From Pseudomonadota bacterium (GTDB taxonomy: Bacteria > Desulfobacterota > Desulfobacteria > Desulfobacterales > RPRI01), in assembly GCA_043825875.1 (NCBI GenBank), contig JBDRRF010000117.1, positions 1-42,980 on the forward strand: DNA of 42,980 bases, read 5' to 3'. Below are positions 104-35,582 of the stretch, in pieces. The position numbers and the translations under genes were made by a program. Under the pieces are notes generated by a model. It had not been told where the DNA came from. It saw nothing but the letters and a program-made list of their open reading frames with translations, and made no database searches. The stretch's first letter is position 1. Every line of letters starts with the position of its first letter.

Positions 104-445
104 TCACCTTCCTTTCCTTTCCATCGCATCCAGAGCAATCCAAACCGCTTCGGTGGGTGTTGCGGTTGAACCAGCAGTCATCCTCAATCCTGATGCGTCC
201 CAGCGCCATCCCGTCCACCCACCTATATGGTCTCTTATCGCAAGCTCTATCAGCATCGATTCAAGATCGGCGCGGGTTTTTCGATCCTCTGGCAGATTCA
301 ACAGTTGAGCTACGAAGTTACATAGCCTAACCACATCGACCCCGCCAGGAGGATACGCCATATGGTTGCCATGTTTACGCTTTTTGTATTTCTCCCGATA
401 TCGTATAATTTCGTTCTTAATAGCCTGCCTGATGTCATCCATCAT
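104..445 (-). CDS. Hypothetical phage protein (113 aa)
   Basis: ORF with AGGAGG RBS, co-oriented with neighbours. Confidence 0.7.
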   Translation of the reverse strand: MMDDIRQAIKNEIIRYREKYKKRKHGNHMAYPPGGVDVVRLCNFVAQLLNLPEDRKTRADLESMLIELAIRDHIGGWTGWRWDASGLRMTAGSTATPTEAVWIALDAMERKGR

Positions 446-495
446 TCCTCCTTGTCGTTATGCGGTCCGCATATACGTTTGTTATGCAGCACCGG

Positions 496-870
496 TCACT
501 TCAGTATCTGGCGGAGAGCCCAATACTCCGGGTTCACCAGGGCCGCAATGGCCCCCGACAGCTCCAGGCCCACGATCACCGCCACCAGCGCTGCAAATGC
601 GATTGATCCCGCCCACGCGAAGAATGCGCCGTCGCTGTCCCACTCGGCGCGCGGGTAGCGTTCGTCCTCAGTCTTGGGCGGCACCCGCGTTTTGCTGCGC
701 ACCCAGCGCAGCAGCAGAACCGCCATTGCCACCCAAGCGGCCATCACCGCCAGATTGATAACCCCCGTAATCGGCGCCTGTCGCAGCAGCACGCCCCACA
801 GGTATTCAGCAGTGGTGCCCAGCTTGTTGGCCAGCGCGGTCAAGGCTTGCAGTGTCTTGTCATCCATCAT
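496..870 (-). CDS. Two-TM membrane protein (LANKLGTTAEYLWGVLLRQA motif)
   Basis: GAGGAGG RBS; two hydrophobic segments; visibly more GC-rich than flanks. Confidence 0.8.
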   Translation of the reverse strand: MMDDKTLQALTALANKLGTTAEYLWGVLLRQAPITGVINLAVMAAWVAMAVLLLRWVRSKTRVPPKTEDERYPRAEWDSDGAFFAWAGSIAFAALVAVIVGLELSGAIAALVNPEYWALRQILK

Positions 871-924
871 TCCTCCTCCTCTAAATAGACAAGCAATAAA
901 ACATCCAGCCTGTGAATTTGAATA

Positions 925-1173
925 TTAGCATTCCATCAAAATCCTGCGCTTCGTCTCCTTTTCGTTGCACTTTTCACAACACGGGCCGACTACTCGCTCT
1001 TGATTGTGCCGAACGGAAACAAAATAGCTTTGATAATATCCCGTTATCACTTTACATGAACAATCGATGCATCTCATTGGGGGCGCTGTATAGCTTAAAT
1101 AAATTTCCCGTTCATGAGGTTCTTGTGTCCATGTTGTATATTCATTCTTTTTGTTTTTATCTTTGTCAATCAT
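925..1173 (-). CDS. Small Cys-rich, possibly Zn-binding protein (82 aa)
   Basis: ATG at 1173 (MIDKDK...); CIDC and CEKC motifs; follows the stop of the upstream small ORF. Confidence 0.55.
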   Translation of the reverse strand: MIDKDKNKKNEYTTWTQEPHEREIYLSYTAPPMRCIDCSCKVITGYYQSYFVSVRHNQERVVGPCCEKCNEKETKRRILMEC

Positions 1174-1178
1174 TGGGA

Positions 1179-1304
1179 TCACCAATAATGTATTACAAGA
1201 CAAGTGGACATTGCAAGAACCGCAAGCACAAACAAGCCAATGATTAAATTTTTGGCTAACTGCCATGCACCATTAAGAATTTTTGAAATGTAATCATCAT
1301 CCAT
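1179..1304 (-). CDS. Small single-TM protein (41 aa, MDDDYISKIL...VIHYW)
   Basis: Not in the ORF track; GAGGG RBS, fills the gap between genes, hydrophobic C-terminal half. Confidence 0.55.
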   Translation of the reverse strand: MDDDYISKILNGAWQLAKNLIIGLFVLAVLAMSTCLVIHYW

Positions 1305-1313
1305 CACACACCC

Positions 1314-1535
1314 TCATTCCTTTCCACGCTTTTTGAGCGGGGTAACCTTGCATTGGATAAGTTTACCTCCGCAGTTCTTTTTATGGTATTTCAACCAAGT
1401 ATTCCCATCCATTGGAATAAAGCCAATGGAGTAACCCCGATATAAAGCGAACCCTTGCCACTTGCAATTTTCCCAACGATCGCAATGCCACATATGCTTA
1501 TGATACTCTAATTCTTTTTTATCTTGACCCATCAT
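1314..1535 (-). CDS. Hypothetical protein (73 aa)
   Basis: Co-oriented ORF in the small-gene array; Cys/His-rich. Confidence 0.6.
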   Translation of the reverse strand: MMGQDKKELEYHKHMWHCDRWENCKWQGFALYRGYSIGFIPMDGNTWLKYHKKNCGGKLIQCKVTPLKKRGKE

Positions 1536-1558
1536 TCACACTTTTCATTCTACATACG

Positions 1559-1747
1559 CTAATGATATTTGCTTGTGTTTGTCGCATTGACTATTGCGGC
1601 TTTTAAGTCGTTTGCGTCTACAATTCTTTCTTCTTCCCCAATCTCTATAATAATAAGATTGTCATAGTGAAGATGGCTATAAACACGTATTGCTGTTTTT
1701 TCTGGATAGTCATTCGTCGAGACCTCATTGGTAACATTTATCATCAT
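1559..1747 (-). CDS. Hypothetical phage protein (62 aa, MMINVTNEV...)
   Basis: ATGA overlap with the upstream stop and a GAGGAGG RBS; the ORF-track extension to 1882 is unlikely. Confidence 0.7.
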   Translation of the reverse strand: MMINVTNEVSTNDYPEKTAIRVYSHLHYDNLIIIEIGEEERIVDANDLKAAIVNATNTSKYH

Positions 1748-1962
1748 TCCTCCTCTTTCCATCGGCGCACCTCGAACGGACCGATCATGAACGCCCACCG
1801 GTAAATAAGTTGGTATCCGCTGTTCTCGAACCGCGTAAAGTGGATGAACGGCCACCACGTTGCCGAGCGAAAAATCGGCCACCAGACAAACTGAAAGCCA
1901 ACCAACACGTGAGGGTCGAACATACTAACCAATCGATGCACTCGGCTCGCTATCTCTCGCAT
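1744..1962 (-). CDS. Trp/Phe-rich hypothetical protein (72 aa)
   Basis: GAGGAG RBS; translationally coupled to the downstream gene. Confidence 0.65.
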   Translation of the reverse strand: MREIASRVHRLVSMFDPHVLVGFQFVWWPIFRSATWWPFIHFTRFENSGYQLIYRWAFMIGPFEVRRWKEEE

Positions 1963-1981
1963 GTGATCTCTCCTCTAAAAC

Positions 1982-2051
1982 TCCCGCTGGCAGGATTCGA
2001 ACCTGCCGTGCCCATATGCCGTATATGTCGTGCGCGTCACGACGCAGCGGG
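1982..2051 (-). ncRNA. tRNA-like RNA with intact acceptor stem and T-arm but aberrant D and anticodon arms
   Basis: CCCGCTG/CAGCGGG 7-bp acceptor stem; GCAGG-TTCGAAT-CCTGC T-arm; internal hairpins GTCGTG/CACGAC and CATAT/ATATG; no U8, no D-loop GG, no canonical 7-nt anticodon loop. Confidence 0.7.
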
Positions 2052-2063
2052 GGAAGTTGTCAA

Positions 2064-2450
2064 CTACATATCGATTCGTTCGTGATCAATTCCCATGGTA
2101 TTGCAATGCAGGCACATATACAACCCATCGACAATAACATACGCAGTACCCGGAGTTGTATCTTCCCATCCGAATTGAAGAGATGATCCTGACGGCGAAC
2201 TCCATTCGCAACTTGCTTCACCGATTTTAGAATCTGTATCGTCGTATTCATTTATCGTGAACGATGCAAAATTCTGATGCGGTGGATTAACACCACCAAA
2301 AGACAGGGAAATAGTGAACGACTCACCATTAGAAGATCCGGTTACATTGCACCATGGCGCACAAATACGACCACCCGGTGGCTCAGGATCGATAGCATAT
2401 GCTCCGAAACAAACGGCAAGTCCAACAATAAGAACCAGTAACGTTTTCAT
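2064..2450 (-). CDS. Secreted/periplasmic Cys-containing protein (128 aa)
   Basis: AAAGGA RBS; signal peptide MKTLLVLIVGLAVCFGAYA with an AxA cleavage motif; several Cys. Confidence 0.75.
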   Translation of the reverse strand: MKTLLVLIVGLAVCFGAYAIDPEPPGGRICAPWCNVTGSSNGESFTISLSFGGVNPPHQNFASFTINEYDDTDSKIGEASCEWSSPSGSSLQFGWEDTTPGTAYVIVDGLYMCLHCNTMGIDHERIDM

Positions 2451-2480
2451 GTTTTTTCCTTTCATAGTTTGGAGTTTAAA

Positions 2481-2580
2481 AAGCAGCGCGCCCGGTAAAA
2501 GAAAGATTCGGTTGCTATTGAAACTTGGCTTTTCATCTTAAACTGTGCGATAATTCCAAAGAACTATGGGCGCGCTGCCT
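2481..2580 (-). ncRNA. Stem-closed small RNA element A (paralog of element D)
   Basis: AGGCAGCGCGCCC/GGGCGCGCTGCTT closing stem; loop shares GTTCTTTGGAATTA, AGTTTAAGATGAAAAGC and TAGYAACCGA with 3667-3773. Confidence 0.7.
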
Positions 2581-2591
2581 AATTTTTAAAC

Positions 2592-2750
2592 AGCGGGCAG
2601 AAGAACCATTAGAAACCTAGATCGAAACAACGTCCAATTCGTCTTTTACGTATTTGACAAAGGGTTTATCTGCCCGAACTTATCAGGCTCTGCTTTCGCA
2701 GGTGCTTTGTAAAAGAACTAAAAAAAGAACCGATAAATCTCCTGCCCGCT
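2592..2750 (-). ncRNA. Stem-closed structured RNA element B
   Basis: AGCGGGCAGGAG/CTTCTGCCCGCT closing stem (G-U pair on minus strand); internal CTGC-GAAA-GCAG and GCCTGA/TCGGGC hairpins enclosed by ACAAAG/CTTTGT. Confidence 0.65.
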
Positions 2751-2755
2751 TCTTG

Positions 2756-3253
2756 TTATTTTTTCTTTGATTGCTCAACCATAGGTTCAGCCGGCGAACT
2801 CTCCGGCATGTCAACAGGATTTGCGCTCTCCACGTATCCCGAAAGAAAATCTTCCATGGCCTTAATCATGGACCTGATTCTGTTTTCGTCTTGCGCTTGA
2901 ATGCCCGTACTCTGTCTTGAACTTTGAGACAAAACAACTTCATCCCTGAGAGTTGACATGTAATTGACAACATCAGTAATCATTTCATTTGATACCTGGA
3001 AAACCTCCACCATGGGCGCCAATACATAAGGCTGTGGCGTCGTTTTGGGAAGATCCTGGATCGGTTGGCCAACAACCCAATCAACGTAACTTGTGAGATT
3101 CGTTAAATACTGCTTGCATCTCTCAACGTCATGCGAATTGAAATTGTTGGTGTTTGCCGATTGGGAATACAATTGCTCGGTGATGTACCGATTCAACCTG
3201 TTCACAATCCCGCAAATGTTCATGTTATAACAAACAGTTTCGGATTCAGGCAT
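2756..3253 (-). CDS. Hypothetical helical protein with an internal two-fold repeat (165 aa)
   Basis: AAGGAG RBS; both halves share an N-x2-I-x3-N...E-x3-SQS...D-x2-R...D-x-P-x3-P pattern. Confidence 0.85.
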   Translation of the reverse strand: MPESETVCYNMNICGIVNRLNRYITEQLYSQSANTNNFNSHDVERCKQYLTNLTSYVDWVVGQPIQDLPKTTPQPYVLAPMVEVFQVSNEMITDVVNYMSTLRDEVVLSQSSRQSTGIQAQDENRIRSMIKAMEDFLSGYVESANPVDMPESSPAEPMVEQSKKK

Positions 3254-3264
3254 TTCTTAACTCC

Positions 3265-3531
3265 TTATTTAATTCGTTCCGCTTCGGGTGAAATAACGGG
3301 CAATTCCTCCGCAACAGAAGATTCCCGCTGAGGTCCAAAGGACCGCCAATTTTCTAAATCGATCCGGTTTTCGGCTAAGATATTCCATGCCATTAAAACC
3401 GTAATAAACAAACAGACACCTGTTATTATTCTGGTACTTTTGTGTTCGCCCTTACAAATTGTGTATCGATACATCTCGATACCTACATACAAAACGATTG
3501 CAAGTGACGCATAAACATGACTGTCAAACAA
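3265..3531 (-). CDS. Two-TM small membrane protein (88 aa)
   Basis: AAGGAG RBS with TTG start; two hydrophobic stretches. Confidence 0.7.
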   Translation of the reverse strand: MFDSHVYASLAIVLYVGIEMYRYTICKGEHKSTRIITGVCLFITVLMAWNILAENRIDLENWRSFGPQRESSVAEELPVISPEAERIK

Positions 3532-3550
3532 TTCGATCTCCTTTCAATAG

Positions 3551-3642
3551 GAGGAAGCACGGCGCCAGGAGGAGAACGGAAATGAAGAACCGCCATTCAA
3601 AACCAAATGTCAATTTTGAATGTAAAGACGCCATGCCTCCTC
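3551..3642 (-). ncRNA. Stem-closed small RNA element C with an exposed anti-SD/anti-AUG segment
   Basis: 16-bp stem GAGGAGGCATGGCGTC/GGCGCCGTGCTTCCTC, fully paired only on the minus strand through three G-U pairs; internal CATTCAAAA/TTTTGAATG hairpin. Confidence 0.65.
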
Positions 3643-3666
3643 GTCTCTTTTTTTCAAAAATAAAAA

Positions 3667-3773
3667 GAACGGTGAGCCCCGTTAAAACAGTCGGTTACTA
3701 CCTGTACCTAAGCTTTTCATCTTAAACTTATGCATGTCTTATTTAATTCCAAAGAACGTAGGGCGCACCGTTC
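3667..3773 (-). ncRNA. Stem-closed small RNA element D (paralog of element A)
   Basis: GAACGGTGCGCCC/GGGCTCACCGTTC stem followed by a U-rich tract; same three conserved loop motifs as A. Confidence 0.7.
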
Positions 3774-3784
3774 ATATTTTAAAT

Positions 3785-3849
3785 GGGACGGTTGGCTTAT
3801 GTGAGGTCGTCGGAAAGAAGTAAGAGGGAAAGAATTGACCAACCGCCCC
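3785..3849 (-). ncRNA. Stem-closed small RNA element E with a pyrimidine-rich loop
   Basis: GGGGCGGTTGG/CCAACCGTCCC stem (G-U pair on minus strand); loop TCAATTCTTTCCCTCTTACTTCTTTCCG. Confidence 0.6.
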
Positions 3850-3856
3850 TTGTAGA

Positions 3857-4345
3857 TTAAAAAGGTAAATCAGTAAGACCAGTTGAAGCCGCGGCCCCGT
3901 CAGTAAAACCCAAAGTCTCCAATTGGGCAAAACCATCCTTCACGTTTTTGATGTCAGCCATAAAAGGCATATTGCGCATGTCATCAAGATAGCGCGTCAA
4001 TTCGCTGATCTTGAAATCCTTTATGCCGAGCCCCGTAAAAAAAGCTTTCAAGAATCGCCCCTGCCTGATCATTTCAGGCACTTCCTCCGCCCATTGCTTT
4101 GTGACGACAGGAAAGTAAATTGAAGCTTCACAACCCCTGTTGTTCACATTGTCATCACATCCAAGCAGATTGATGATTAACTGAGGTCTGCCGTAATACT
4201 TGCTGCTCGACTTGTTGTTTTTATTGAGTGTATATCTGTCAACGTAAATAGCCTGACGTCCGGGTTTCAATTCACCATCACCCATATTTTTATACAGATC
4301 ATCTGATCCGCCCAATTCTTCACTGACATTAAAATCATCAATCAT
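3857..4345 (-). CDS. Putative single-stranded DNA-binding protein (DUF669-like)
   Basis: Directly downstream of the Sak4-like ATPase; C-terminal TDLPF tail typical of SSBs. Confidence 0.7.
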   Translation of the reverse strand: MIDDFNVSEELGGSDDLYKNMGDGELKPGRQAIYVDRYTLNKNNKSSSKYYGRPQLIINLLGCDDNVNNRGCEASIYFPVVTKQWAEEVPEMIRQGRFLKAFFTGLGIKDFKISELTRYLDDMRNMPFMADIKNVKDGFAQLETLGFTDGAAASTGLTDLPF

Positions 4346-5105
4346 TTGCTTTCTCCTTAAAGAAGGCCGCTATCTTGGCCCAACATTGTTCCTCTGGCTC
4401 CACAATAATTTCACCAGAGCCCTTGAGATATTTGGTGCAGTCTTTTGCGATATATTGTGTCGAAGGCGTGAATGAAATACAACGCCTTTCAGTAAAAACC
4501 CCATCCACCATGACGCCTTTAATGTACATCCTGCCAATCATGTCGGTCATCCCATTGACGATTTTCCAACAAGTTGGTATCATATCGGGCTTAATCATTT
4601 CCCGCACAACTCCGGCATATTCGGTTTCTTTCACCGCCTCGTGGCAGATCATAACAATGCCAAGACCTGATGAAGCCAAAGCATTAAAGGCATTGACCAT
4701 TTTAGTTTTTGCATAATCATAGCCTTTGCCATGGCCTGAATCATTGATATGTTCCCAACCATTGTCATGGCACACCTCGTTCACGCCAAACTGCCAGAGG
4801 TTTCCAATCCCATCGACGACCACCGTCTTGAAATCATGGTCTTCGCCTAATAGGGCTTGAACCTGCTCTCTAAAATCGGCCCAACTATTTACATCCTTCC
4901 CCCATGTCTTAATCCATTTCTGGCGCTTGTCACAGCGTAAAAAATAAGGGTTATCCATCTGGCTCGCCATTGTCGTTTTGCCGACACCAGGCTGGCCGTA
5001 AATCAAGATCTTCCCTCGCAAGGGATCGGTCTCCACGGGATCGAAATCCTGAGCAAGCTTAGAATCCTTGTTTTCCATCTTCTGTGGTCCTTTCTCGTTT
5101 CTCAT
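4338..5105 (-). CDS. Sak4-like AAA_24 ATPase / single-strand annealing recombinase
   Basis: KILIYGQPGVGKTT Walker A, TVVVDG Walker B, GxGY and ICHE motifs; nuclease-Sak4-SSB gene order. Confidence 0.88.
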   Translation of the reverse strand: MRNEKGPQKMENKDSKLAQDFDPVETDPLRGKILIYGQPGVGKTTMASQMDNPYFLRCDKRQKWIKTWGKDVNSWADFREQVQALLGEDHDFKTVVVDGIGNLWQFGVNEVCHDNGWEHINDSGHGKGYDYAKTKMVNAFNALASSGLGIVMICHEAVKETEYAGVVREMIKPDMIPTCWKIVNGMTDMIGRMYIKGVMVDGVFTERRCISFTPSTQYIAKDCTKYLKGSGEIIVEPEEQCWAKIAAFFKEKAND

Positions 5106-6027
5106 TTTTCTCCTCCAGTTCAGGGTGATAATCAGACCCTACTTGATCATACAATTCTCTCCATCCTGGTTCCGCGAAACATATTGGCAAATATTTACAG
5201 GCATGATTATATGAAATACACGAAGTAGGATTCATGCTCCAAACTTTTGTATGGTAACAATCCGCCAATCTCCACAATATATTAAGAAGAGACGACGTAA
5301 CAGTTTTAGAATGACAATCTAAGGCAATGCAAGACGAATAATACTTCGTCACATTTTCAGATGATGCATATTCCGTTGCCATTCTTGAAAGATAATCGTC
5401 ATGGGATTCGTTTTTTTTCTGACGGATGCCCGGCCTTTTAATATAACGAAACTCAAAGCTACTCACATTTATATTAAATAATTTAGAATAGGCTTTACGA
5501 TAAAGTATCTGCTGTAAGTCTAATGAAAGCACCTTTTCAAACCATGACAATCCTACGTTACTGATACTGTCTTTTGTCTTATAATCAATTAATTGAACAG
5601 AATCGCGGACAGGCACAACCTCATCAATGCGACCACCAAACTCAAAATTATAAGGGATCGCGCGACCGTAGATATCATCCATAACATCCGACATGGGCAT
5701 TCTAATCAACACTTCAAATTCAGAACCCGGCAGGACTGGCCAAGGCGCGTTATAGGCGCCATGAAAAGCAATAGTTTCAATTTCTTTGCATGTAGATTCG
5801 TCAAACATACCGTTACGAAAAAGGTCTAATATCTCATTCTGCACTTTCAGCTTTATCTTGTTTGGCTCTACGCCTTTTCCGAAAAGCTCTTTTGCCAAAT
5901 GTAACATCGTACCAATTATCATAACTTTCGGCTTGTTCTTTTCTTGATAACCTAGAACTTGGCCTAGCTGATATTTTTTCTCGCAAGCCAAGAAATCTAA
6001 GATTGTAGTCTTTGTCAAAATCACCAT
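5059..6027 (-). CDS. PD-(D/E)XK (RecB/Cas4-like) exonuclease
   Basis: GRID...LIDYKT catalytic motif, Q-x3-Y, one N-terminal Cys plus three C-terminal Cys; AGGAGG RBS before ATG 6027. Confidence 0.85.
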   Translation of the reverse strand: MVILTKTTILDFLACEKKYQLGQVLGYQEKNKPKVMIIGTMLHLAKELFGKGVEPNKIKLKVQNEILDLFRNGMFDESTCKEIETIAFHGAYNAPWPVLPGSEFEVLIRMPMSDVMDDIYGRAIPYNFEFGGRIDEVVPVRDSVQLIDYKTKDSISNVGLSWFEKVLSLDLQQILYRKAYSKLFNINVSSFEFRYIKRPGIRQKKNESHDDYLSRMATEYASSENVTKYYSSCIALDCHSKTVTSSLLNILWRLADCYHTKVWSMNPTSCISYNHACKYLPICFAEPGWRELYDQVGSDYHPELEEKNEKRERTTEDGKQGF

Positions 6028-6358
6028 AATCATCCCTCCTTGAAACAAACTCCACGGTCAAAGCGAAAGATCCAAATCTTTTCTTGTTTATTTTATTATA
6101 CGCTTTAGCTATTGGAGAGAGAAGATACCGAATTGCTTCGCTAGTTGTTGACTTGGTGGCATCCGTATAATTCCTCACAAAATCACGCAAATGCGTATCA
6201 AGATCAATCACCATTTTGCCGCTATTATTGGCGCGCCGCTGGGCTTTCGACGTTTTCGCCGCGCGCGCTTTGCGCTTATATTGTTCTTCCGCTAAAATGT
6301 TTTTCGATAAACCGGAAGGGTCAATAGTTGTAAACGGGCTGTTGTCTTTTTTTGGCAT
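5834..6358 (-). CDS. Putative ribbon-helix-helix transcriptional regulator
   Basis: KMVIDLDTHLRDFVRNY...TTSEAIRYLL fits an RHH pattern; first gene after the consensus promoter; C-terminus overlaps the nuclease gene. Confidence 0.55.
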   Translation of the reverse strand: MPKKDNSPFTTIDPSGLSKNILAEEQYKRKARAAKTSKAQRRANNSGKMVIDLDTHLRDFVRNYTDATKSTTSEAIRYLLSPIAKAYNKINKKRFGSFALTVEFVSRRDDYGDFDKDYNLRFLGLREKISARPSSRLSRKEQAESYDNWYDVTFGKRAFRKRRRAKQDKAESAE

Positions 6359-6390
6359 AAACTCTCACTTTCTTAACTCTCAATGATGAG

Positions 6391-6418
6391 ATTATACCGC
6401 AAGACGCAACCTTGTCAA
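6391..6418 (-). promoter_or_regulatory. Sigma70-type promoter of the replication/recombination operon
   Basis: Exact TTGACA-N16-TATAAT on the minus strand in the intergenic gap. Confidence 0.85.
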
Positions 6419-6769
6419 TTAATTTTTTATATTGCGTATTACAGAAATGACAGAATTGAGCGTTCCATGTAGTGATTTTAATTCGGATAAGATATTATCA
6501 AGCACTATAGGTAGTGCTTTCAAATCTTTTTGCAATTCTACTGTTTTTTCAATGCATTCATCATTGAAATATGCAAGAGGCCGCCCCGAACCGTTGGTTT
6601 TATTATGGAAACAGACCAGAGATTCTATGTTCGCATCGATTGATTTCATAGCATTAAACAATTCATGTATTTGCGGATCGTTCCGCCCCTTAAGCCAATC
6701 CCAAACAATTTTGGCAACAATGCCAAATCCTAGTGTTACGATAGCACCGGTGATTATCGCGTCGTTCAA
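6419..6769 (-). CDS. N-terminal TM plus coiled-coil protein (possible holin or lysis accessory)
   Basis: Single N-terminal hydrophobic helix; last gene of the late block. Confidence 0.5.
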   Translation of the reverse strand: MNDAIITGAIVTLGFGIVAKIVWDWLKGRNDPQIHELFNAMKSIDANIESLVCFHNKTNGSGRPLAYFNDECIEKTVELQKDLKALPIVLDNILSELKSLHGTLNSVISVIRNIKN

Positions 6770-6771
6770 GA

Positions 6772-7458
6772 TTATGTCTTTCTATGACCAGGATGTTCAT
6801 CCGTCCAAAATTCAGGAAAGTCAATATATGGAATATCCACAGTCCCGAAGTTCCCAAGTTTATATATTTTAACTATTTGTGATAATTTTTCATGCCAATA
6901 CTCGAACTCTTTGGCAAACTCAAGCAATCGTTTTGTTGTCCGTATTGTCTGTTTTCCGACCGTTATTTTGCAGCCCCTATCCGTTCGCGCCAATAACGCC
7001 TGCTTGTCTAAAAACACGTTGGATCTAAACTCATTGCGTCCAGGTTGAGGGACGAGCATGCAGTCACACCCAACCAAAATTATAGGATTACAACCCATCC
7101 AATGAAGCACCTGTAAAGCACATCCCCCTGATGAATTATGGAGTAAAGCCCCATTGATATTTCGATTGCCAAAACCCCAATAATAAGTGTCGGTCCCGTT
7201 CGCTATTGGCGTCTTATTGCGCCGCATCATTTGGAGTTTTACACAAGGAGCGCGACGGCATTCGTCTGTCACATTCCGATCTTGCCAAATAATGTAATCC
7301 AATGGATGTTTTTGAAAACCCAGATTGCATCCGATCAATACTCCTTCATTCTTTAAGGCAGGAATGTTATAATAATTGACAGTCCATCCATTCCCAATGA
7401 CAAAGCCAGTTTCATCCTTGTGGCGGTCAACGAGTTGGTCTATCCATTTAGCTGGCAC
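6772..7458 (-). CDS. Maf/MptE-like (DUF115), sialyltransferase-like glycosyltransferase
   Basis: RHKDETGFVIGNG, IGCN, DYIIWQD and SSG..ALQ..HWMGCNPIILVGCD motifs. Confidence 0.75.
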   Translation of the reverse strand: MPAKWIDQLVDRHKDETGFVIGNGWTVNYYNIPALKNEGVLIGCNLGFQKHPLDYIIWQDRNVTDECRRAPCVKLQMMRRNKTPIANGTDTYYWGFGNRNINGALLHNSSGGCALQVLHWMGCNPIILVGCDCMLVPQPGRNEFRSNVFLDKQALLARTDRGCKITVGKQTIRTTKRLLEFAKEFEYWHEKLSQIVKIYKLGNFGTVDIPYIDFPEFWTDEHPGHRKT

Positions 7459-10400
7459 TATTTTACTTTTTCAATAGTCTTTTTATGTTCTTCGATAATC
7501 TTCAATGCCCGACCCGGGAAGGTTTTCTGTATATAAGAATGTGAGCGTTTTAGCTCACTCTTGCGCTTACTGATTTCGAACTTCCTGGTTTTTTCTAAAC
7601 GTTCAACATTAAACTGATAAGTTTTGGGGCGCAATCCAGCCGCCTCGATGGTCCTTTCAAACAAAACTTTTTCGCCATCGGGCGATTTTCCAGATATCAG
7701 CTTATTAAGCTCATTGGCCGCTCGAATGTTTCTAAGTCCATGAACGGCCATTTTGCTTATGTCCATGCCAAGATAAGAAGGTCCGTACGGTTCTCCGGGA
7801 TAACGCTGGATGTCCTCCTCGGTATAAAAGCTATGGTTGGTGGCCATCTCAATCGGCAATTTAATGAATGGGCTAAGAAGTCCAGCCGCCAGTTTATGCG
7901 GTTCCATCCCTATCCAATCTCGCAGATCAGTCCAGCCCATCCATTGATTCCAGAGCCTGACTTCAATCTGGCCAGTTTCTTTATTTACTTGCGTTGGCAC
8001 GCCTAAGTTTTTATTAACCCATCTAGGCAAGAGTTTTACGTCTATGTCCCGGGCTTCGTCGCTTTGAAAAGCATGGACAATGCGGTTAGCCAAAGAAAAC
8101 GCTCCAGGTTTCGTTATCAACATTTCGAAAGTCCGGGGCGTATTTTTGCGAGTCCAATTCCAGAACGGCATAAACGGCATCATGTTCTTGTCAAAAGCAC
8201 TCACCTCATTAAAATTATAAAAAAACTTTTTGACACTCTGTGCCGCCTGATAGGGGTCATCCCCCTTTTTAAGACGATTAATAAAATGGGCGGTCCTATG
8301 GATACTTTCCGCCTCATTGCCGCGTTCAAATAGCCAATTTGTTGCCGCGTTAATAGTTTTGTTCAGCTTCTTTGATGTGCTCTTGGTCAAAGTCACAAGC
8401 TCACCATCAGTTATATGCATCTGGTCTGCTGTATGAATGCCTTTCCCCAGGATATTCTCTTCCAACATATGGCGATAAGCATCACCTAAACTGATTGGCT
8501 TTCCATGCCATCCCGATTTAACAACTTCCTGTGTCAACGAATCGCCTTGAACTCTCGCGGCTTTATTCATCCAATTGTATAGCCCTTTTTTCTCTGAGCC
8601 GAGGAGGGCCTTCATGGCGTGGTGATAATCAGTAGGAACCAGAGAATCGGCAAGTCCCGCCTGCCAAAATCCATTGGTAAAATTTCTCGAATAATACGCA
8701 GGAAAAAAAGCCAAAGTCGTCGCTTTCCAGAAGTTGGTTATTGTCATGACCGACCGCATGGCACCACTCTTGAACGTGGGGTTTTGAGAGAAATCGACAA
8801 ACCGCTCAAGCCCTTCCATTATCTCCGTGGGCATGGCATGTACCGGCAAACCCACGGCCGCGGCTTTGGCCGCATTTAGTTCCTCCTGGTCAATGGTATG
8901 AATCAGCCGGCTTAACCCTCCAGGAGACTTGAGCCTTGATCGATCAACCTGCGATTTCCACATGTTGTAAGCAGGTTCACCAATGATGGTCTTCCAGTTA
9001 TCCCCATAACGAGCCCGCATGCCCTCTTCGCTGAAAAGAACAAGCCGTTCGCCAAGAAGGGGATTCCACTCTTCCTCAGAAACTTCTCTGGCAAAGATCT
9101 TAACTCCCATGTTGATTTTGTCTTGGAGCTTAATGGCATGATTTGAATCCACCATATATTTTTGGATCGTGGCCGTTGGATTTTCCATGAAAAGGGATAA
9201 CTGGCTAGAATCCATGCCCCCAAGCACGTTATCCCATAATCCCCGATCTTTGCCCTTCAGGTTATTGCGGGCATGATAAAAGACTTTTTCAAGGAAATCA
9301 TAAGGTAGCTTGCCCTCCCGCGCCATGCGGTTCAGCGTAGGAACGTCATATTCCTGAAGCACACGGTTTAACCCGGCTTGATTAAACACATCCAGCACAT
9401 CCTTGCCGCGATACTGCAATTTCCCAGCCTTCAGCAGTTCACGAAAAGACTTGAGCCCCAATGCGCCCTTGGCGGTTTCCGTCATAAATCGCGGGACATA
9501 AGCCAACTCAGGATCAGGGATTAAAGTGTTAAGCCGATATTGGCGCATGGCAAATTCGGCCCGCAGTACGTCTGTTTCAATATTCGTCAGTTCTCTTTTG
9601 TGGAGATCCCCTACATCATCCGTTACATCCCAACCTTTCTTTTCGGCTAGGCGGTTGAATTTTTTGTCAACCCTATTTTTAATCTTGCGCCAAGAGGGCA
9701 TATCGTTCATGTCCACACCCTGGCTCTTGGCCATGTTCATAAAATAGTCATAAGCCCTGCGATTAGAAAGTTGATCCCTTCCGAAGTATTTGACTTTCTG
9801 CCCTGGCGTAAGCTCGAACCGCCCGAACTGGTCATCAAACCAGCCTCTAATTTTCTCAATGGTTTCCTTGAGATGCTCCGGAGCCTCCCTGGGCCTCAAA
9901 AAACCCTCGTGGTTGGCCGCGAACTCATGAGGGTGCCTCAGCATGTCCATGACCTTATCCGCGTCACCTTGGCTTAAATTCCGGAAGATCTGAGCCGCTT
10001 CATCGGATATCTGCTGCACCCGCTCATCTGATAGGTAGTGCCTTCGTGCCGAAGTGGCCATGGATAGGGCCGCGTTACCGGCCTCTGACCCTGTGCCCCA
10101 CTTCAACATTTTCGTGGTCCACCCGGTGAGACTGCGCCCGGCCGCCGTATTGAACCTAAGATGACTGGTCATCTTTTCAAACCCGGTAATAACCGAACCT
10201 GACCATTCATCAAAAAGTTTTGGTATAAGAGAGTATTGGCCATCAGGGATGCCAAGCCGGCGCATCAGCCATGGAATTCTGACCGCGGCAAGAGTGGCCG
10301 CCCCCTCTTTCAGGCGCTGTCCCAACCCTGGGGGCAACAAAGTTCTTGGGTCTTCCGCGTTTTTCAAATACGGCGCCACATAATCCATTAATTCCGTTCG

Positions 10401-11156
10401 TCCACTAAGACTTTTAATCTCATGGGCAAATGCGTAAGGATCTTTGATAATCTCGTTGTGCAGCCGGTAAAGTTCGGTCATGTGCAAATGGCTTCGAATC
10501 ATACCAGCAGAGGCATCATCGGCAACCCCGACCGAAGCTGTAGCCTTGGCAATGGTATCATTGAATTCCTTGGACAATGTTTTGCCCTGGCCTACAATGC
10601 TATACATTCTTGCCGCATCATCACCACCGAACGTTTTTGCCAGAGAACCCGCCATTTGGCGCCCATGAAATCCTTGCAAAGCCTTGCCGGTTGCCTTACC
10701 CACATTCCCAATAGTGGTGAAAGTATTAATTGCCATTAATGGATCAGTGAGAACGTCCGCAATAAATCCAGCACCTTCCTTGAGGACGTCGAATTCAGAT
10801 CCGCCCATCCAATCAGGGAGGCGCACGTTCCCCCATTTGCCCGGAGCAACTTCGTCAAGAAAATCCTTCATCCTGTGGCGCTCTTCCCCAAGCAGGGCCT
10901 GGCCCACTCTGTCAAAGGGGGAGAAATCGCCGCCATCCACTAAATCGGTGAGGATTCCGGCCATAGCGGATTGGGGTCTGCCGAGATAATCCAGCAAGGT
11001 AAAAAGCGCATTCTCTGAGTCTTTTTCCTCATCGATCTGCTGTTCGGCCACCTTCTCGAAAAGCTGATCTTCCGGGGCCTGCTGGGGAAAGCTGTGGCCC
11101 AATAAACTGCTGATTGTAGGTATGTTTATTTTAGGGACGAACTGTTCAATGCCCAT
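7458..11156 (-). CDS. Large internal virion / DNA ejection protein (1232 aa)
   Basis: Third of three genes after the tail nozzle; C-terminal R..HF...AAQSVKKFFYNF...MPFWNWTRKN motif typical of large ejection/polyvalent proteins. Confidence 0.7.
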   Translation of the reverse strand: MGIEQFVPKINIPTISSLLGHSFPQQAPEDQLFEKVAEQQIDEEKDSENALFTLLDYLGRPQSAMAGILTDLVDGGDFSPFDRVGQALLGEERHRMKDFLDEVAPGKWGNVRLPDWMGGSEFDVLKEGAGFIADVLTDPLMAINTFTTIGNVGKATGKALQGFHGRQMAGSLAKTFGGDDAARMYSIVGQGKTLSKEFNDTIAKATASVGVADDASAGMIRSHLHMTELYRLHNEIIKDPYAFAHEIKSLSGRTELMDYVAPYLKNAEDPRTLLPPGLGQRLKEGAATLAAVRIPWLMRRLGIPDGQYSLIPKLFDEWSGSVITGFEKMTSHLRFNTAAGRSLTGWTTKMLKWGTGSEAGNAALSMATSARRHYLSDERVQQISDEAAQIFRNLSQGDADKVMDMLRHPHEFAANHEGFLRPREAPEHLKETIEKIRGWFDDQFGRFELTPGQKVKYFGRDQLSNRRAYDYFMNMAKSQGVDMNDMPSWRKIKNRVDKKFNRLAEKKGWDVTDDVGDLHKRELTNIETDVLRAEFAMRQYRLNTLIPDPELAYVPRFMTETAKGALGLKSFRELLKAGKLQYRGKDVLDVFNQAGLNRVLQEYDVPTLNRMAREGKLPYDFLEKVFYHARNNLKGKDRGLWDNVLGGMDSSQLSLFMENPTATIQKYMVDSNHAIKLQDKINMGVKIFAREVSEEEWNPLLGERLVLFSEEGMRARYGDNWKTIIGEPAYNMWKSQVDRSRLKSPGGLSRLIHTIDQEELNAAKAAAVGLPVHAMPTEIMEGLERFVDFSQNPTFKSGAMRSVMTITNFWKATTLAFFPAYYSRNFTNGFWQAGLADSLVPTDYHHAMKALLGSEKKGLYNWMNKAARVQGDSLTQEVVKSGWHGKPISLGDAYRHMLEENILGKGIHTADQMHITDGELVTLTKSTSKKLNKTINAATNWLFERGNEAESIHRTAHFINRLKKGDDPYQAAQSVKKFFYNFNEVSAFDKNMMPFMPFWNWTRKNTPRTFEMLITKPGAFSLANRIVHAFQSDEARDIDVKLLPRWVNKNLGVPTQVNKETGQIEVRLWNQWMGWTDLRDWIGMEPHKLAAGLLSPFIKLPIEMATNHSFYTEEDIQRYPGEPYGPSYLGMDISKMAVHGLRNIRAANELNKLISGKSPDGEKVLFERTIEAAGLRPKTYQFNVERLEKTRKFEISKRKSELKRSHSYIQKTFPGRALKIIEEHKKTIEKVK

Positions 11157-31256: not shown

Positions 31257-31508
31257 ATGCCAGGTAATCACGCCACCGGCCAAGAACTCATTAAATTCCT
31301 GCAAGAAAAAGGACTCCAAGACGCCGAAGTCTACATCGCGGCCCATTTCTCCACCAAACAAAATACAGTCTATGTCCCCCTCGATCTCCAAGACCACGGC
31401 AACCCCCACTACAAAATCACACCACCCAACCCGGCCCAGGCCGAACCCGCCACCCTGTCCCTCGGCATGTGGGCCTGCAAAAAAAACAACACCGGACCGC
31501 ATCAGTAA
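31257..31508 (+). CDS. Hypothetical protein (83 aa)
   Basis: AAGGA RBS and ATG at 31257; T..ELI..LQ...DAEVYI pattern. Confidence 0.6.
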   Translation: MPGNHATGQELIKFLQEKGLQDAEVYIAAHFSTKQNTVYVPLDLQDHGNPHYKITPPNPAQAEPATLSLGMWACKKNNTGPHQ

Positions 31509-31551
31509 TCCAAAAATTTTTTGGAAAAGGAAATCGGCATAGAAGAATGAG

Positions 31552-31629
31552 AATGAGAATGATAGGGGAATATGAGAATAGAGGAAGGGATATGAGAATA
31601 GAGGGGGGGAATATGAGAATAGAGGGGGG
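31552..31629. repeat. Tandem purine-rich repeats with about 20-bp period (ATATGAGAATAGAGG core)
   Basis: Exact cores at 31570, 31590 and 31611; degenerate copy at 31552. Confidence 0.9.
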
Positions 31630-31941
31630 TGGCCCTCAACACTCCCCGGGTGCGCGCGAAAAAAAGACGCCTGGCCCCCTGGTCTTAATTTCCTTTCATA
31701 TGAAGTTTCTCAGATATATGTGGACCTCGATATCAAGACATTGGAATATGTGCAGGATGCAATATGAAAAAGCAAACATATGCGTCAACTCTCATGGTTA
31801 ACTGATTCACCTCCAGCCTCAAAATCGCATTAGAATAAACCTACTCATCATATGAACTATTATCGGACGTTATTTTTGACCAACTATCACCTTCCCATAA
31901 ATAACCAACCAATGGCTTTGTCATATATGAATAGAAACTTA

Positions 31942-32160
31942 TGTATCAGCAAATGACGTAAATGCCATAATGTATCCCACTTAGTTATACCATATTCAAA
32001 TAGAAATCAGCAGGAATTGCGCAAATCCTTATTTTGCAGTAGTTTAGGATTTGTGTATCAGCAAATGACGTAAATGCCATAATGTATCCCACTTAGTTAT
32101 ACCATATCTACATAAAAATCAGCAAAAATTGTGCAAGCCCTTGCCCTACAATAGCTTGAC
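31942..32160. repeat. Tandem duplication with 112-bp period and an exact 54-bp core
   Basis: 31942-31995 is identical to 32054-32107; the remainder is degenerate. Confidence 0.92.
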
Positions 32161-32177
32161 TATACCATATCAAACCC

Positions 32178-32307
32178 ATAATAAAAAAAAAGAGACTATC
32201 TATGTGGGGGAAAATTACACATACACACACACACGCACACACATTACCCATTACATGTGCATTTCCTTTTTTTTCCCCACATATGATACTATGTATTTTT
32301 TTATTAT
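32178..32307. repeat. Imperfect inverted repeat enclosing a CA-rich tract
   Basis: ATAATAAAAAA...TATGTGGGGGAAAA pairs with TTTTCCCCACATA...TTTTTTATTAT. Confidence 0.75.
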
Positions 32308-32588
32308 ATATTAGATATAATATAGTAGTATTGTTGATAAATAAGGACTTATGATTATATCAATACAAATACATATAAAAAGGGTCATATATCAATATAA
32401 ATACATATGTATCAACTTAGATATGAGACACTTTTGAGACACTCTTTTAACATAAATACATATGTTCCATTTTAAATATGAGACAAATGAGACACTATTT
32501 CGATTTAATCACATATGTCCATTACCCACATTTCCGCAATTCCCTGATGCAGATCTTCCACTTTTTTTTATTTTTTGCTATTTTTGCC

Positions 32589-32616
32589 TTGACCTTGCAC
32601 CGATATAGTGTATAGT
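32589..32616 (+). promoter_or_regulatory. Sigma70-type early promoter
   Basis: TTGACC-N16-TATAGT with upstream T-tracts, just before the plus-strand gene block. Confidence 0.65.
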
Positions 32617-32670
32617 TGGGGCATGTGAGATGCGAAACGATCCTGAAACTTAAAAAAAAGGAACAGAATT

Positions 32671-32838
32671 ATGAAAGTAGAAAGAATAGAAGTGTACTGG
32701 CACAACTTAAAATCCATCAAAGCCGGAGAAAGAAAGCAGGAACGGCTTGTAAATGATGGATGGAATTTCTGGAAATCTTTGCCCGGATTTTTCCGAACCA
32801 TAGATTTGTACAAAATGGGAGATGAGAAGTCTAAGTAG
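32671..32838 (+). CDS. Small early protein (55 aa, MKVERIEVYWHNLKSIKAGERK...)
   Basis: Not in the ORF track; AAGGA RBS; stop abuts the first repeat motif. Confidence 0.7.
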   Translation: MKVERIEVYWHNLKSIKAGERKQERLVNDGWNFWKSLPGFFRTIDLYKMGDEKSK

Positions 32839-32863
32839 GCCGACGAATTTAACCCTTTGTGAG
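32839..32863 (+). repeat. Intergenic motif copy 1 (GCCGACGAATTTAACCCTTTGTGAG)
   Basis: Near-identical copies at 33537 and 33949. Confidence 0.9.
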
Positions 32864-32885
32864 AGAGTTTTGAAAGGAAAAGAAA

Positions 32886-34535: not shown

Positions 34536-34546
34536 GAGGAACAAAA

Positions 34547-34732
34547 ATGAAAATCAAAATAGATGCATTAGAATTAATGGATAGGTTAGATAAACTCCGA
34601 CAGGAATATGACGGGAAAAAGCCCAATAGTACCTCTTTACATCAGTTTTTCGAGGGCAGGGCTCGTGCTGTTGAACTTATTACGGATATTGTGAATGAAA
34701 TGATCGATAAGGAGAAAAAAACATGGAGATGA
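34547..34732 (+). CDS. Hypothetical protein (61 aa)
   Basis: AGGAGG RBS. Confidence 0.75.
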   Translation: MKIKIDALELMDRLDKLRQEYDGKKPNSTSLHQFFEGRARAVELITDIVNEMIDKEKKTWR

Positions 34733-34932
34733 GCGCCGAAGAGCTCCAGATGTGGGATGCATGCGGTGAACCTGATACCCATTGCCGGGAATGCTGGGAA
34801 CCCCGATACATGCTCAACGAAGCGGATCTATGTGAACACTGCGCCGACCTGGACACTCAGGAGCCCGACGGAGACGAGGAAAAGGCGCACAGGATCGTAA
34901 AAGAAAGGCAAACCGATGAAAGATACCCCTAA
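34723..34932 (+). CDS. Small Zn-finger-like protein (69 aa)
   Basis: AAGGAG RBS; CREC and CEHC motifs. Confidence 0.7.
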   Translation: MEMSAEELQMWDACGEPDTHCRECWEPRYMLNEADLCEHCADLDTQEPDGDEEKAHRIVKERQTDERYP

Positions 34933-35173
34933 GAATAAAAAGAGCGTAGAGGCTGAATTTGAGGCCCTGGTGATTCGGTTCGGATGGTGGAACACCCTTA
35001 ACACGCTGGCCGGCATGGCGTATGCCGCATCGAGGTTTGAAATGCCAACATATAGCCAATCCTGGGGAAGGATGTGTCTGGATCTGGATGACCTCGCCCG
35101 CTATTACACAAAATATCTGGACAGGGAGAAAAAAAAGGATGCAAAACCGCCAATTCCGAGAAATATTATTTGA
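34916..35173 (+). CDS. Hypothetical protein (85 aa)
   Basis: Overlapping co-oriented ORF with AAAGG upstream. Confidence 0.6.
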   Translation: MKDTPKNKKSVEAEFEALVIRFGWWNTLNTLAGMAYAASRFEMPTYSQSWGRMCLDLDDLARYYTKYLDREKKKDAKPPIPRNII

Positions 35174-35256
35174 CGTTTTTGTTATAGCAGGTACAATATT
35201 ATTATTAATAGTACTTATGAAAGTATGAGTATACAAAAAAGAAAGGCACATGAACC

Positions 35257-35514
35257 ATGGCGCGAACAATACGACAAAAATACGAGGCAGCCGTAGCCCG
35301 TATTAACAAAATAGATGAGCGCGTGAACCAGCTTATGGCAAAAATGAAAGAAAAACGCGACGACGTGATGAGAAAGTTGATTGCAGCTCAAAACGATCTG
35401 AACGAAGAAATTTCACGCAAAAAGCAGGAACTAGAAGACATACAGAAAGTTACCATCGAAAAGACCACGCAATGCCTCGAACCCGCCTCACTCAACACGA
35501 CTCATGACGATTAG
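35257..35514 (+). CDS. Coiled-coil hypothetical protein (85 aa)
   Basis: Heptad-like, charged sequence; followed by a terminator. Confidence 0.7.
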   Translation: MARTIRQKYEAAVARINKIDERVNQLMAKMKEKRDDVMRKLIAAQNDLNEEISRKKQELEDIQKVTIEKTTQCLEPASLNTTHDD

Positions 35515-35548
35515 CGGAACCACGCCTTTCCTTTTCCTCTCACCGCTT

Positions 35549-35578
35549 AGGGCCCTGGTTAAAATCAGGGCCCTTTTT
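35549..35578 (+). terminator. Rho-independent terminator
   Basis: AGGGCCCTG/CAGGGCCCT hairpin followed by a T-run. Confidence 0.85.
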
Positions 35579-35582
35579 ATTC

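Follow-up and report, generated by a model that had tools for sequence, protein, structure and literature searches.

The window analyzed in this work (42,980 nt) is the complete 43-kb genome of an uncultured groundwater phage, in which two operon gaps, 3532-3856 and 2466-2755 (615 nt in all), are filled by five elements of 65-159 nt, each closed by a GC-rich stem of 12-16 bp. The closing stems are far above chance, and comparison of the sequences of related phages indicates that they are under RNA-level selection and kept in place while the cargo genes change. At present, the element family is known from three phages and one sister strain.

The stem-closed elements

All five elements are encoded on the minus strand. 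E (3785-3849) consists of a 12-bp closing stem around a 41-nt open, pyrimidine-rich loop; D (3667-3773) has a closing stem of 14 columns with one C-U mismatch, a structured, purine-containing interior and a U-run behind it; C (3551-3642) combines a 16-bp closing stem with a 13-bp inner hairpin and an unpaired 3' part whose complement is an SD-spacer-AUG sequence. In the second gap, B (2592-2750) exhibits a 13-bp closing stem, a U-rich 5' interior and inner hairpins, and A (2481-2580) a closing stem of 13 bp and, after it, a U-run. TTTAAAA linkers are present between E and D and between B and A. Five of the ten minus-strand stems of this kind found genome-wide fall in the two gaps, which make up 1.4% of the genome, and among 300 mononucleotide shuffles of the gaps 298 gave no stem and two gave one, compared to the five observed. 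This bears out the first-pass annotation, which had described two gaps of about 300 bp filled by elements with GC-rich closing stems; the transcription order, the linkers and the tRNA mimic are likewise as described there.

The minus strand yields pronounced folding z-scores for all elements (E: -3.5; D: -3.1; C: -5.7; B: -3.8; A: -3.7), while the plus strand scores weakly for E (-1.3) and C (-1.5) and similarly to the minus strand for D (-3.3) and A (-3.2); folding of both strands had been the check proposed earlier. Nearly all stem imperfections had been said to resolve to G-U pairs on the minus strand, and the five closing stems indeed contain 8 G-U pairs, no A-C pair and a single C-U exception. 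Across ten stems from the three phages we counted 21 G-U pairs, no A-C pair and one other mismatch, which, together with the compensatory changes described below, indicates that selection acts on the minus-strand RNA, with the qualification that the tally is partly ascertained because the stems were defined on that strand.

The loops, initially characterized as mostly U/C-rich, are so in E and C, with pyrimidines accounting for 73% and 88% of the unpaired bases and the loops being open, but not in B (56%), A (54%) and D (36%), whose interiors are structured. D and A are paralogues, a relationship overlooked at first and the sole two-copy paralogy among the elements: their interiors share cores of 17 nt and 14 nt while their stems covary, with both partners changed in 4 of 13 pairs, one partner in a single pair, and one pair broken.

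The search of Rfam 15 revealed no match in the window at the gathering score (best hit: MIR390, 21.8 of 77 bits, E-value 0.26) and none in the related phage loci L064 and L069 described below, in agreement with the initial statement that the elements match no known RNA family. We found no description of the element family in the literature, where the supplements of large motif screens (PMC5737381, PMC8040213) could hold one. The locus is not a CRISPR array, as also stated before: there is only one two-copy paralogy and no Rfam CRISPR match, and the repeat of the arrays in the bin is unrelated. CRISPR repeats, attC-like cassette sites and C/D-box guides were considered and dropped, promoter repeats were rejected on the grounds of the different spacing of the D and A cores (6 vs 15 nt), and type III antitoxin repeats were dropped, the resemblance being confined to a short UUUAAG. 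Two metatranscriptome runs of one study contained a 36-nt partial piece in one and nothing in the other, which is no evidence either way.

The operon and its proteins

The operon comprises, in this order, a regulator-like gene, an exonuclease, Sak4, an SSB-like gene, E, D, C, the 2-TM gene, the 165-aa gene, B, A, a gene for a secreted protein, the tRNA-like element T and small genes, all of the features named here being on the minus strand. From the sequence, we infer that it starts at a perfect sigma-70 promoter, TTGACA-16-TATAAT (6391..6418), the sole 12/12 site within 1700-7000; inside 1900-3900 the minus-strand search returned only a weak 9/12 site at 3805-3776. The operon is probably early. 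Its first gene (5834..6358; 174 aa, without family), with a small gene in the corresponding place of L064 and L069 (18-20% identity), may at a guess encode a regulator. It is followed by a PD-(D/E)XK exonuclease (5059..6048; PF12705, E-value 2.5e-8; phrog_1218), a Sak4-like ssDNA annealing ATPase (4338..5105; phrog_124, E-value 8e-40) and a 162-aa gene without family match (3857..4345), 7 nt past whose stop codon element E begins, and which is probably SSB-like, judging from its position after Sak4 and its acidic C-terminus. Downstream of A, the 127-aa product of 2064..2447 has a signal-peptide-like N-terminus (judged by eye from the sequence), no family and Atlas scores of at most 0.78, which are leads only; in L064 an unrelated gene bearing a signal peptide occupies this position. 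The search for an integrase in the phage found none.

The constant protein partner of the elements is the 88-aa protein with two hydrophobic segments (2-TM; 3265..3531), a member of a family of 5 clusters. The 165-aa four-helix protein (2756..3253), in contrast to its earlier designation as an orphan, belongs to a widespread phage family of 558 clusters at E<=1e-3 and is exchangeable at this site. The internal duplication ascribed to it is real but weak (halves 22% identical, E-value 7e-4). No Pfam, PHROG, PDB-sequence or Atlas assignment was obtained, Foldseek reported no match at E<=0.001, and VIA-align gave a best Z of 6.9, with no match above the helical-bundle background, at which the DGR accessory protein Avd also lies (Z 6.0, rmsd 2.8, 87 aligned, rank 19). 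The nearest homologue (73%, L063) is located directly before the head-tail adaptor gene of a head-neck module and has no element, while the L064 homologue (57% identical) sits between elements. Any long stem within 620 nt was found in 16 of the 53 distinct loci with a gene of this family; 14 of these 16 have flanks with GC>=0.54 and scattered stems, and only L064 combines low or moderate GC with stems on either side of the gene. Among the named neighbors of the family, head, connector or lysis genes are the commonest, and no member was found in 100 relatives of the bin.

Related phages and covariation

Stem-closed elements occur at the same positions as in the window in the syntenic phages L064 and L069 and in one sister phage. 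L064 contains three (x1-x3; sense-strand z-scores -5.7, -4.7 and -3.1) and L069 two (y1 and y2), with x1 (L064:4891-4980) and y1 (L069:12214-12279) as positional counterparts of E. Between the stems of E and y1, both partners differ in 4 of 11 pairs and one partner in 2, and no pair is broken. In slid controls only 31-64% of cells pair; the column-shuffle control of the covariation counts, with two rows per alignment, is of limited weight (30/500 and 38/500). In element A of the sister phage (runs X3 and X5 of one study), positions 2490 and 2571 have changed together from G-C to A-U (2571 being covered in X3 only) and a change at 2580 produces a G-U pair. These compensatory changes in D/A, E/y1 and the sister phage uphold the earlier proposal of selection on RNA structure.

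Cargo genes between the elements are exchanged. The sister phage lacks the 165-aa gene, yet retains B and A; its 2-TM gene shares 81% identity with that of the window, and no difference is listed for its element B. The segment that it lacks (2749 to 3265) has a gene stop, not a second element, at its end. In L069 a different, 284-aa gene replaces the 165-aa gene and two elements are retained. Loop sequences are poorly conserved between the phages, and covariance models built from D/A and E/y1 did not recover y2 and x1-x3, so most of the cross-phage correspondence is positional and not demonstrated homology.

Searches for further homologues, recommended in the first-pass annotation, were unproductive: the covariance models R1 and R3 run against 619 kb from 66 sources retrieved only the training sequences, R1 matched nothing else in the bin, and the exact D/A pattern had no match in viral contigs within a gap range that excluded the A-type spacing. 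Single-protein and subclade scans of viral contigs and genome contigs found nothing, while the exonuclease scan returned L069 again and 8 non-syntenic loci. Among GenBank phages there was no match for the 165-aa or MptE-like protein, and the terminase matches are ~25% identical.

The tRNA-like element

Element T (1983-2051) is the only ARAGORN match at the 90% threshold, and was missed by ARAGORN and Rfam at default thresholds. Examined as a tRNA, it has a 7-bp acceptor-like stem and a T arm with a TTCGA loop, this arm lying in 20 nt that are shared exactly with tRNA-Arg of the bin, and a 5-nt D-type loop, but neither a canonical cloverleaf with an anticodon loop nor an encoded CCA. T was not seen in L064 and L069, the latter sequence ending 250 nt beyond y2.

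Pairing with start regions

The loops of E, C, y1 and x2 pair with 13 start regions of the early operon at mean energies of -11 to -12 kcal/mol. The corresponding values are -7 to -8 kcal/mol for 17 late genes and about -7 across 250 bin genes, and the cores shared by D and A reach -3.5 to -5. However, shuffled loops bind start regions of the bin equally (E: -6.8 observed vs -7.4 shuffled; C: -7.5 vs -7.4), and loops of other phages bind the early starts of the window phage equally well. The anti-RBS pairing of the E and C loops is compositional.

With a helix of 21 bp, x1 covers the SD of the gene that opens its own operon (target in the leader at L064:2362-2382; equalled by 2 of 150 shuffles), and the pairing of y1 with its own leader is borderline (equalled by 6 of 150). 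For E, pairing with the cognate leader is nothing special (equalled by 54 of 150 shuffles; rank 48 of 67 when accessibility is included), hence cognate-leader feedback was rejected for E and feedback of the x1 type is not general. The idea of feedback arose after the x1 pairing was seen.

Genome-wide, the best helices of the window elements did not exceed those of shuffles (19-56 of 60 as good), and a 14-nt stretch of the D/A core that matches the terminase gene was rejected as no better than shuffles. A scan of 3740 crudely called starts of the bin, run without shuffle control, gave no convincing target, the longest matches in start regions being 11-12 nt. The suggested role in host takeover or anti-defence thus gains no direct support, there being no target beyond chance in the bin genome. 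The bin may not be the phage host at all, considering the GC content (39% vs 44.5%), the longest shared stretch of 20 nt and the lack of a spacer match.

Possible functions

The reading we favor, albeit tentatively and with less than even confidence, is that the elements are putative processed, stem-protected sRNAs, of which E and C would act broadly on RBSs, while D, A, B and the tRNA mimic would be protein-binding or processing elements. As far as function can be deduced from sequence, the transcript would begin at the sigma-70 promoter at 6418, there being no strong internal promoter; the AU-rich linkers could be cleaved by host nucleases, transcription could stop at the U-runs behind D and A, or both; the paired ends would shield the released RNAs from exonucleases, and RNase P would likely cleave at T. 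Through their open U/C loops, E and C might pair with the strong AG-rich SD regions of the phage's own early genes and of host genes, and the accumulating RNAs would lower translation, serving as a timer or feedback and possibly damping the host. D, A and B, which do not pair with start regions, would more likely bind proteins, and the 165-aa and secreted proteins would be exchangeable cargo.

The elements could instead work only in cis, as punctuation of the mRNA by processing, stabilizing or partial-termination signals that set the levels of upstream and downstream genes, the free RNA being functionless. E and B begin 5-7 nt past stop codons, C and y1 end near the next SD, U-runs follow D, A and x1, the 3' arm of D (3668-3683) can form an alternative terminator hairpin, and the loops are poorly conserved, all of which would fit such a role; we nevertheless consider it somewhat unlikely, as three tandem elements with interiors of 30-130 nt exceed the needs of punctuation by far, the D/A cores are kept despite the covarying stems, and B is without difference in a phage whose neighboring gene has diverged by 19%. 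Rho, S1, Hfq and PNPase are host factors that bind unstructured U/C-rich RNA, and the pyrimidine loops might titrate such factors, with D, A, B and the tRNA mimic absorbing defence nucleases or toxins. Conservation of loop composition rather than sequence, the multiple copies, the canonical T arm of an element without anticodon loop and CCA, and the lack of a specific antisense target would be expected of such decoys. No binding partner was identified, though, x1 has a long specific helix to an mRNA leader and T was not seen in the related loci, hence we regard this explanation as unlikely.

The dedicated ribonucleoprotein system of the RNAs and the 165-aa protein, proposed in the first-pass annotation, appears very unlikely. 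That protein does lie between elements in both the window and L064, four-helix bundles can bind RNA and Avd is among the weak structural neighbors, but the protein is acidic (13 K/R vs 21 D/E), its 73% homologue has no elements, most of the 53 loci with the gene lack long stems nearby, its named neighbors are mostly head, connector and lysis genes, the Avd score equals background, and the sister phage and L069 retain elements without the gene. Hairpins acting at the DNA level (recombination or cassette-exchange sites, single-strand origins), or mere chance, are hardly tenable and largely refuted already: the location after an exonuclease-Sak4-SSB recombination module, the exchange of cargo genes between elements and the equal folding of D and A on both strands could be so explained, unlike the excess of G-U over A-C pairs on the transcribed strand, the boundaries of the segment missing from the sister phage, the failure to find an integrase, and the exonuclease-Sak4 phage loci L074, L075 and L078, which have no gap past the third gene. 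Returning to processed sRNAs, we speculate, as a long shot, about a polycistronic small-RNA cassette resembling a viral microRNA cluster, in which putative end-clamped RNAs diced from the early transcript, duplicating and contracting from 1 to 3 per gap, would throttle translation at strong SD sites (E and C broadly, x1 locked on its own first gene) while D, A, B and the tRNA mimic neutralize host RNA-binding or defence proteins, i.e. an RNA-only early-to-late switch and host-takeover kit.

Comparison with known systems

Bacterial Y RNAs (YrlA/Yrn), which act with Ro60, combine an end-paired stem, a pyrimidine-rich loop and tRNA mimicry. In the window, unlike in Y RNAs, the tRNA mimic stands apart from the other elements; Rfam gives no match, and the Pfam scan of 16 ORFs of the operon region (104-11156) found no TROVE/Ro60 domain.

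With the c4 antisense RNA of P1/P7 and CI of the satellite phage P4 the elements share the character of short phage RNAs with paired ends, processed in those systems (PMC12197685, PMC5499578) and only putatively so here. Loop sequences of c4 block a ribosome-binding site (PMC12197685), and both C4 and P4 CI have been suggested to be hairpin-like substrates of RNase P (PMC5499578). Each of the two is an immunity RNA that occurs singly in a temperate phage and has one defined cognate target, whereas the window has five unrelated or paralogous elements and a tRNA mimic, no detected integrase and no cognate target found; the Rfam models of c4/CI-type RNAs had no sequence-structure match in the window, L064 and L069.

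In Vibrio cholerae, the sRNAs OppZ and CarZ arise by processing at operon 3' ends and act as repressors of the very transcripts that they come from (PMC7398697), which resembles the way in which x1 of L064 would pair back to the start region of its own operon. They belong to host metabolic operons, with RNase E processing shown and specific seed pairing, while our elements have paired ends and an operon-internal position, and cognate pairing fails for E. The Cuckoo/CcsR sRNAs of Alphaproteobacteria are similar in their multi-copy, pyrimidine-rich, anti-SD-like single strands, but are described (PMC4615179) as 2-4 adjacent short hairpins with CCUCCUCCC in every loop, a motif absent from the elements, in which one long closing stem surrounds an interior of 30-130 nt. 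The skipping-rope, drum and DUF3800 motifs (PMC5737381) are structured RNAs followed by terminators with a protein gene nearby, features that the elements here would share; the latter, however, have no Rfam match, no DUF3800 domain (none in Pfam scans of the element neighbors and of 44 members of the 165-aa family) and no conserved tie to the 165-aa protein.

The characterized phage sRNAs that we found in the literature, as covered by a review (PMC12197685), are mostly single RNAs. If the elements are processed, a tandem cluster of covarying, end-paired RNAs within the recombination operon of a phage that has no detected integrase would represent a new, protein-free means of timing or damping translation. 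The cluster contributes no fewer than two or three RNA classes not catalogued before (E-type, D/A-type and B), with x1 and its 21-bp target as one directly testable pair.

Phage and operon setting

The window is the entire contig C117 of a 4.77-Mb metagenome bin; its ends overlap by 82 nt, and the assembly represents a complete, circular phage with genes for a terminase, portal, major head protein, primase and RuvC-like protein; a search for an integrase among the phage genes gave no match. The phage sequence occurs in groundwater metagenomes from two studies. The bin is at best a candidate host, as its GC content and that of the phage differ (39% vs 44.5% for phage and bin) and none of its CRISPR spacers matches the phage. 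The element-bearing operon on the minus strand starts with a perfect sigma-70 promoter (6418-6391) and encodes, ahead of the first gap, a 174-aa protein, a PD-(D/E)XK exonuclease, Sak4 and a protein that appears to be SSB-like; promoter type and gene content suggest that the operon is early. Two other large gaps without confident genes (31503-32885, 1.4 kb, and 34536-35582, 1.0 kb) contained no long closing stems in the stem scan.

The five elements

All five stem-closed elements proposed in the first-pass annotation exist: E (3785-3849), D (3667-3773) and C (3551-3642) lie in one gap (3532-3856), B (2592-2750) and A (2481-2580) in the other (2466-2755), with closing stems of 12-16 bp and minus-strand folding z-scores of -3.1 to -5.7. 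Searching the whole genome for stems with 11 bp or more around 30-160 nt yielded 10 minus-strand and 5 plus-strand cases, two of the latter being D and A in reverse reading. The two gaps make up 1.4% of the genome, yet contain 5 of the 10 minus-strand stems, and shuffling them (300 trials) produced only 0 or 1 stems per trial. The loops had been described as pyrimidine-rich, which holds for E and C (mainly pyrimidine, open); the interiors of D, A and B form structures of their own. Cores of 14 nt and 17 nt are common to D and A, a paralogous pair. The Rfam search of the window returned no match, in agreement with the claimed absence of a known RNA family.

The 3' arm of D (3668-3683, minus strand) has an alternative fold as a short terminator-like hairpin ahead of a U-run, and D could alternate between this hairpin and its closing stem. 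Inspection by eye revealed a start-like AUG-AAA-AGC without SD in the D/A core (3720 and 2536, minus strand), opening frames of 12 and 24 codons, and a similar AUG-AAA in element y2 of the syntenic phage contig L069; this could possibly be a start-site mimic. Antisense to C and D (3567-3725, plus strand) a perfect AGGAGG stands 9 nt ahead of an ORF of 47 codons, which is probably a mere mirror of the anti-SD strand of C, although a genuine antisense peptide is conceivable.

The tRNA-like element T (1983-2051, minus strand), the sole ARAGORN hit at the 90% threshold, has an acceptor-like stem of 7 bp, a T arm inside a perfect 20-nt match to the bin's tRNA-Arg and a D-type loop of 5 nt, and lacks a canonical anticodon loop and CCA. 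Sequencing run X3 contains a variant of T (2000-2051) and a contig that may connect T to A with the secreted-protein gene missing (joint 2051-2454, with a short side of 30 nt).

Conservation in related phages

Two syntenic phages were found. L064 (JGI) has the gene order of the window, with one element 3' of the SSB-like stop and two 3' of a 164-aa gene, all three folding better on the sense strand. In L069 (IMG/VR) an element of nearly E's length directly follows the SSB-like stop and precedes a TTTAAAA linker and the gene for the 2-TM protein, downstream of which come an unrelated gene of 284 aa and an element of 170 nt. Between E and its L069 counterpart y1, 11 of 11 pairs are kept (both sides changed in 4, one side in 2), and between D and A 12 of 13 (both sides changed in 4). 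A column-shuffle control, weak for two-row alignments, gave 38/500 and 30/500, while in slid controls 31-64% of cells were paired. Ten stems from the three phages comprise 115 Watson-Crick, 21 G-U, 0 A-C and 1 C-U pairs, a tally partly ascertained because the stems were defined on the same strand.

A sister phage, seen in runs X3 and X5 of one study, differs from the window at 28 positions in 150 nt of the 2-TM gene and not at all in B. Its A stem carries a paired change (2490/2571, the latter covered in X3 only) and, at 2580, a G-U in place of A-U (also X3 only). A low-depth X5 contig (depth 3.3, possible error) has three changes, all in the 5-nt loop that caps the inner hairpin of B. The covariation bears out the earlier claim of selection on RNA structure, and the elements are a genuine phage RNA cluster, uncatalogued and restricted to this clade. 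Models built on D/A and E/y1 did not recover the other elements; hence, much of the cross-phage correspondence is positional.

Neighboring proteins

The 165-aa protein (2756..3253) had been taken for an orphan, which is contradicted by 558 clusters of relatives in the full HMM search (44 relatives in a word search; 61 viral loci). It is acidic, and its AlphaFold model is a confident four-helix structure (pLDDT 87) for which the fold search found no match above background; the family conserves Ser-Gln-Ser and Asp-Leu-Pro-Glu motifs in the two halves of its proteins and is assigned to no Pfam, PHROG or fold. Its genes often adjoin portal or connector genes: among 60 neighbors (a selection from the 85 that were extracted, with one more from L063), 16 matched a PHROG (8 head/portal/terminase/connector, 2 lysis, 3 SSB/exonuclease, 3 unknown function). 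The proposed ribonucleoprotein of this protein and the RNAs is improbable: the closest homologue (73%) resides in a head-neck module without elements, a long stem occurs within 620 nt in only 16 of 53 distinct loci (14 of the 16 in DNA with GC of at least 0.54), and in the sister phage the 2-TM gene is joined straight to B, with the 165-aa gene absent. L064 is the sole low- or moderate-GC locus among the 53 with stems on both sides of the gene. The locus survey and the element-free homologue mark the protein as mobile cargo. The 2-TM protein (88 aa, 3265..3531), found in each of the four related phages and from a family of only 5 clusters, is by its distribution a clade marker. Another viral contig with a 165-aa family gene also codes for a tRNA and for a tmRNA of the permuted, alphaproteobacterial type (L056:912-1220), and in L024 a long structured gap with a terminator lies directly 3' of the family gene (L024:1253-1510, no match in Rfam).

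Predicted targets and proposed mode of action

The 3' strand of C is exactly complementary to a sequence of the form SD-spacer-AUG. For 13 start regions of the early operon, the predicted pairing with the loops of E, C, y1 and x2 (the latter from L064) averages -11 to -12 kcal/mol, vs about -7 kcal/mol for late genes and bin genes (a 250-gene sample of 3740); the D/A cores show no comparable pairing with start regions. Shuffled loops bind the bin's starts equally well, so the pairing reflects composition. Further downstream, an almost identical block of SD and start recurs about every 430 nt in four small genes (435-453, 860-878, 1297-1315 and 1737-1755), a pattern suggesting that start regions were duplicated in the manner of cassettes; three of these genes rank among E's best predicted partners.

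The best single candidate pair is predicted for x1 (L064:4891-4980), with 21 contiguous pairs including G-U to L064:2362-2382, over the SD of its own operon's first gene, 2.5 kb upstream (matched by 5/200 shuffles contig-wide and 2/150 on that leader). On its own leader y1 is borderline (6/150 shuffles as good) and E not specific (54/150), and six non-cognate element-leader pairs were all unremarkable (19-117/150). No window element had a best genomic helix beyond shuffles, and the bin genome provided no convincing host targets.

We tentatively prefer the reading that small RNAs would be released from the transcript and stabilized by their paired ends, and that those of the E/C class would have a broad effect on ribosome-binding sites rich in purines; these targets and the timing of action are our inference. 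Apart from the cited cases, what the arguments on mechanism assume about Rho, S1, Hfq, RNase E and RNase P is general background. Punctuation acting only in cis is a less probable but serious competitor, and decoys for proteins rank slightly lower. Far behind come the ribonucleoprotein with the 165-aa protein, which we doubt strongly, and, least credible of all, DNA-level hairpins or chance.

Relation to known systems

The literature searched gave no description of the cluster. It matches no c4/CI family model, lacks the adjacent loop-motif hairpins of cuckoo RNAs and the DUF3800-related neighbor gene of the skipping-rope/DUF3800 motifs, and shows specific pairing within its own operon, as in c4/CI and OppZ/CarZ RNAs, for x1 only. 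Cuckoo RNAs resemble it in their anti-SD-like strands (PMC4615179) and skipping-rope/DUF3800 motifs in context (PMC5737381). In its proposed mode of action, the cluster would be closest to the c4/CI phage antisense RNAs (PMC12197685, PMC5499578) and OppZ/CarZ (PMC7398697).
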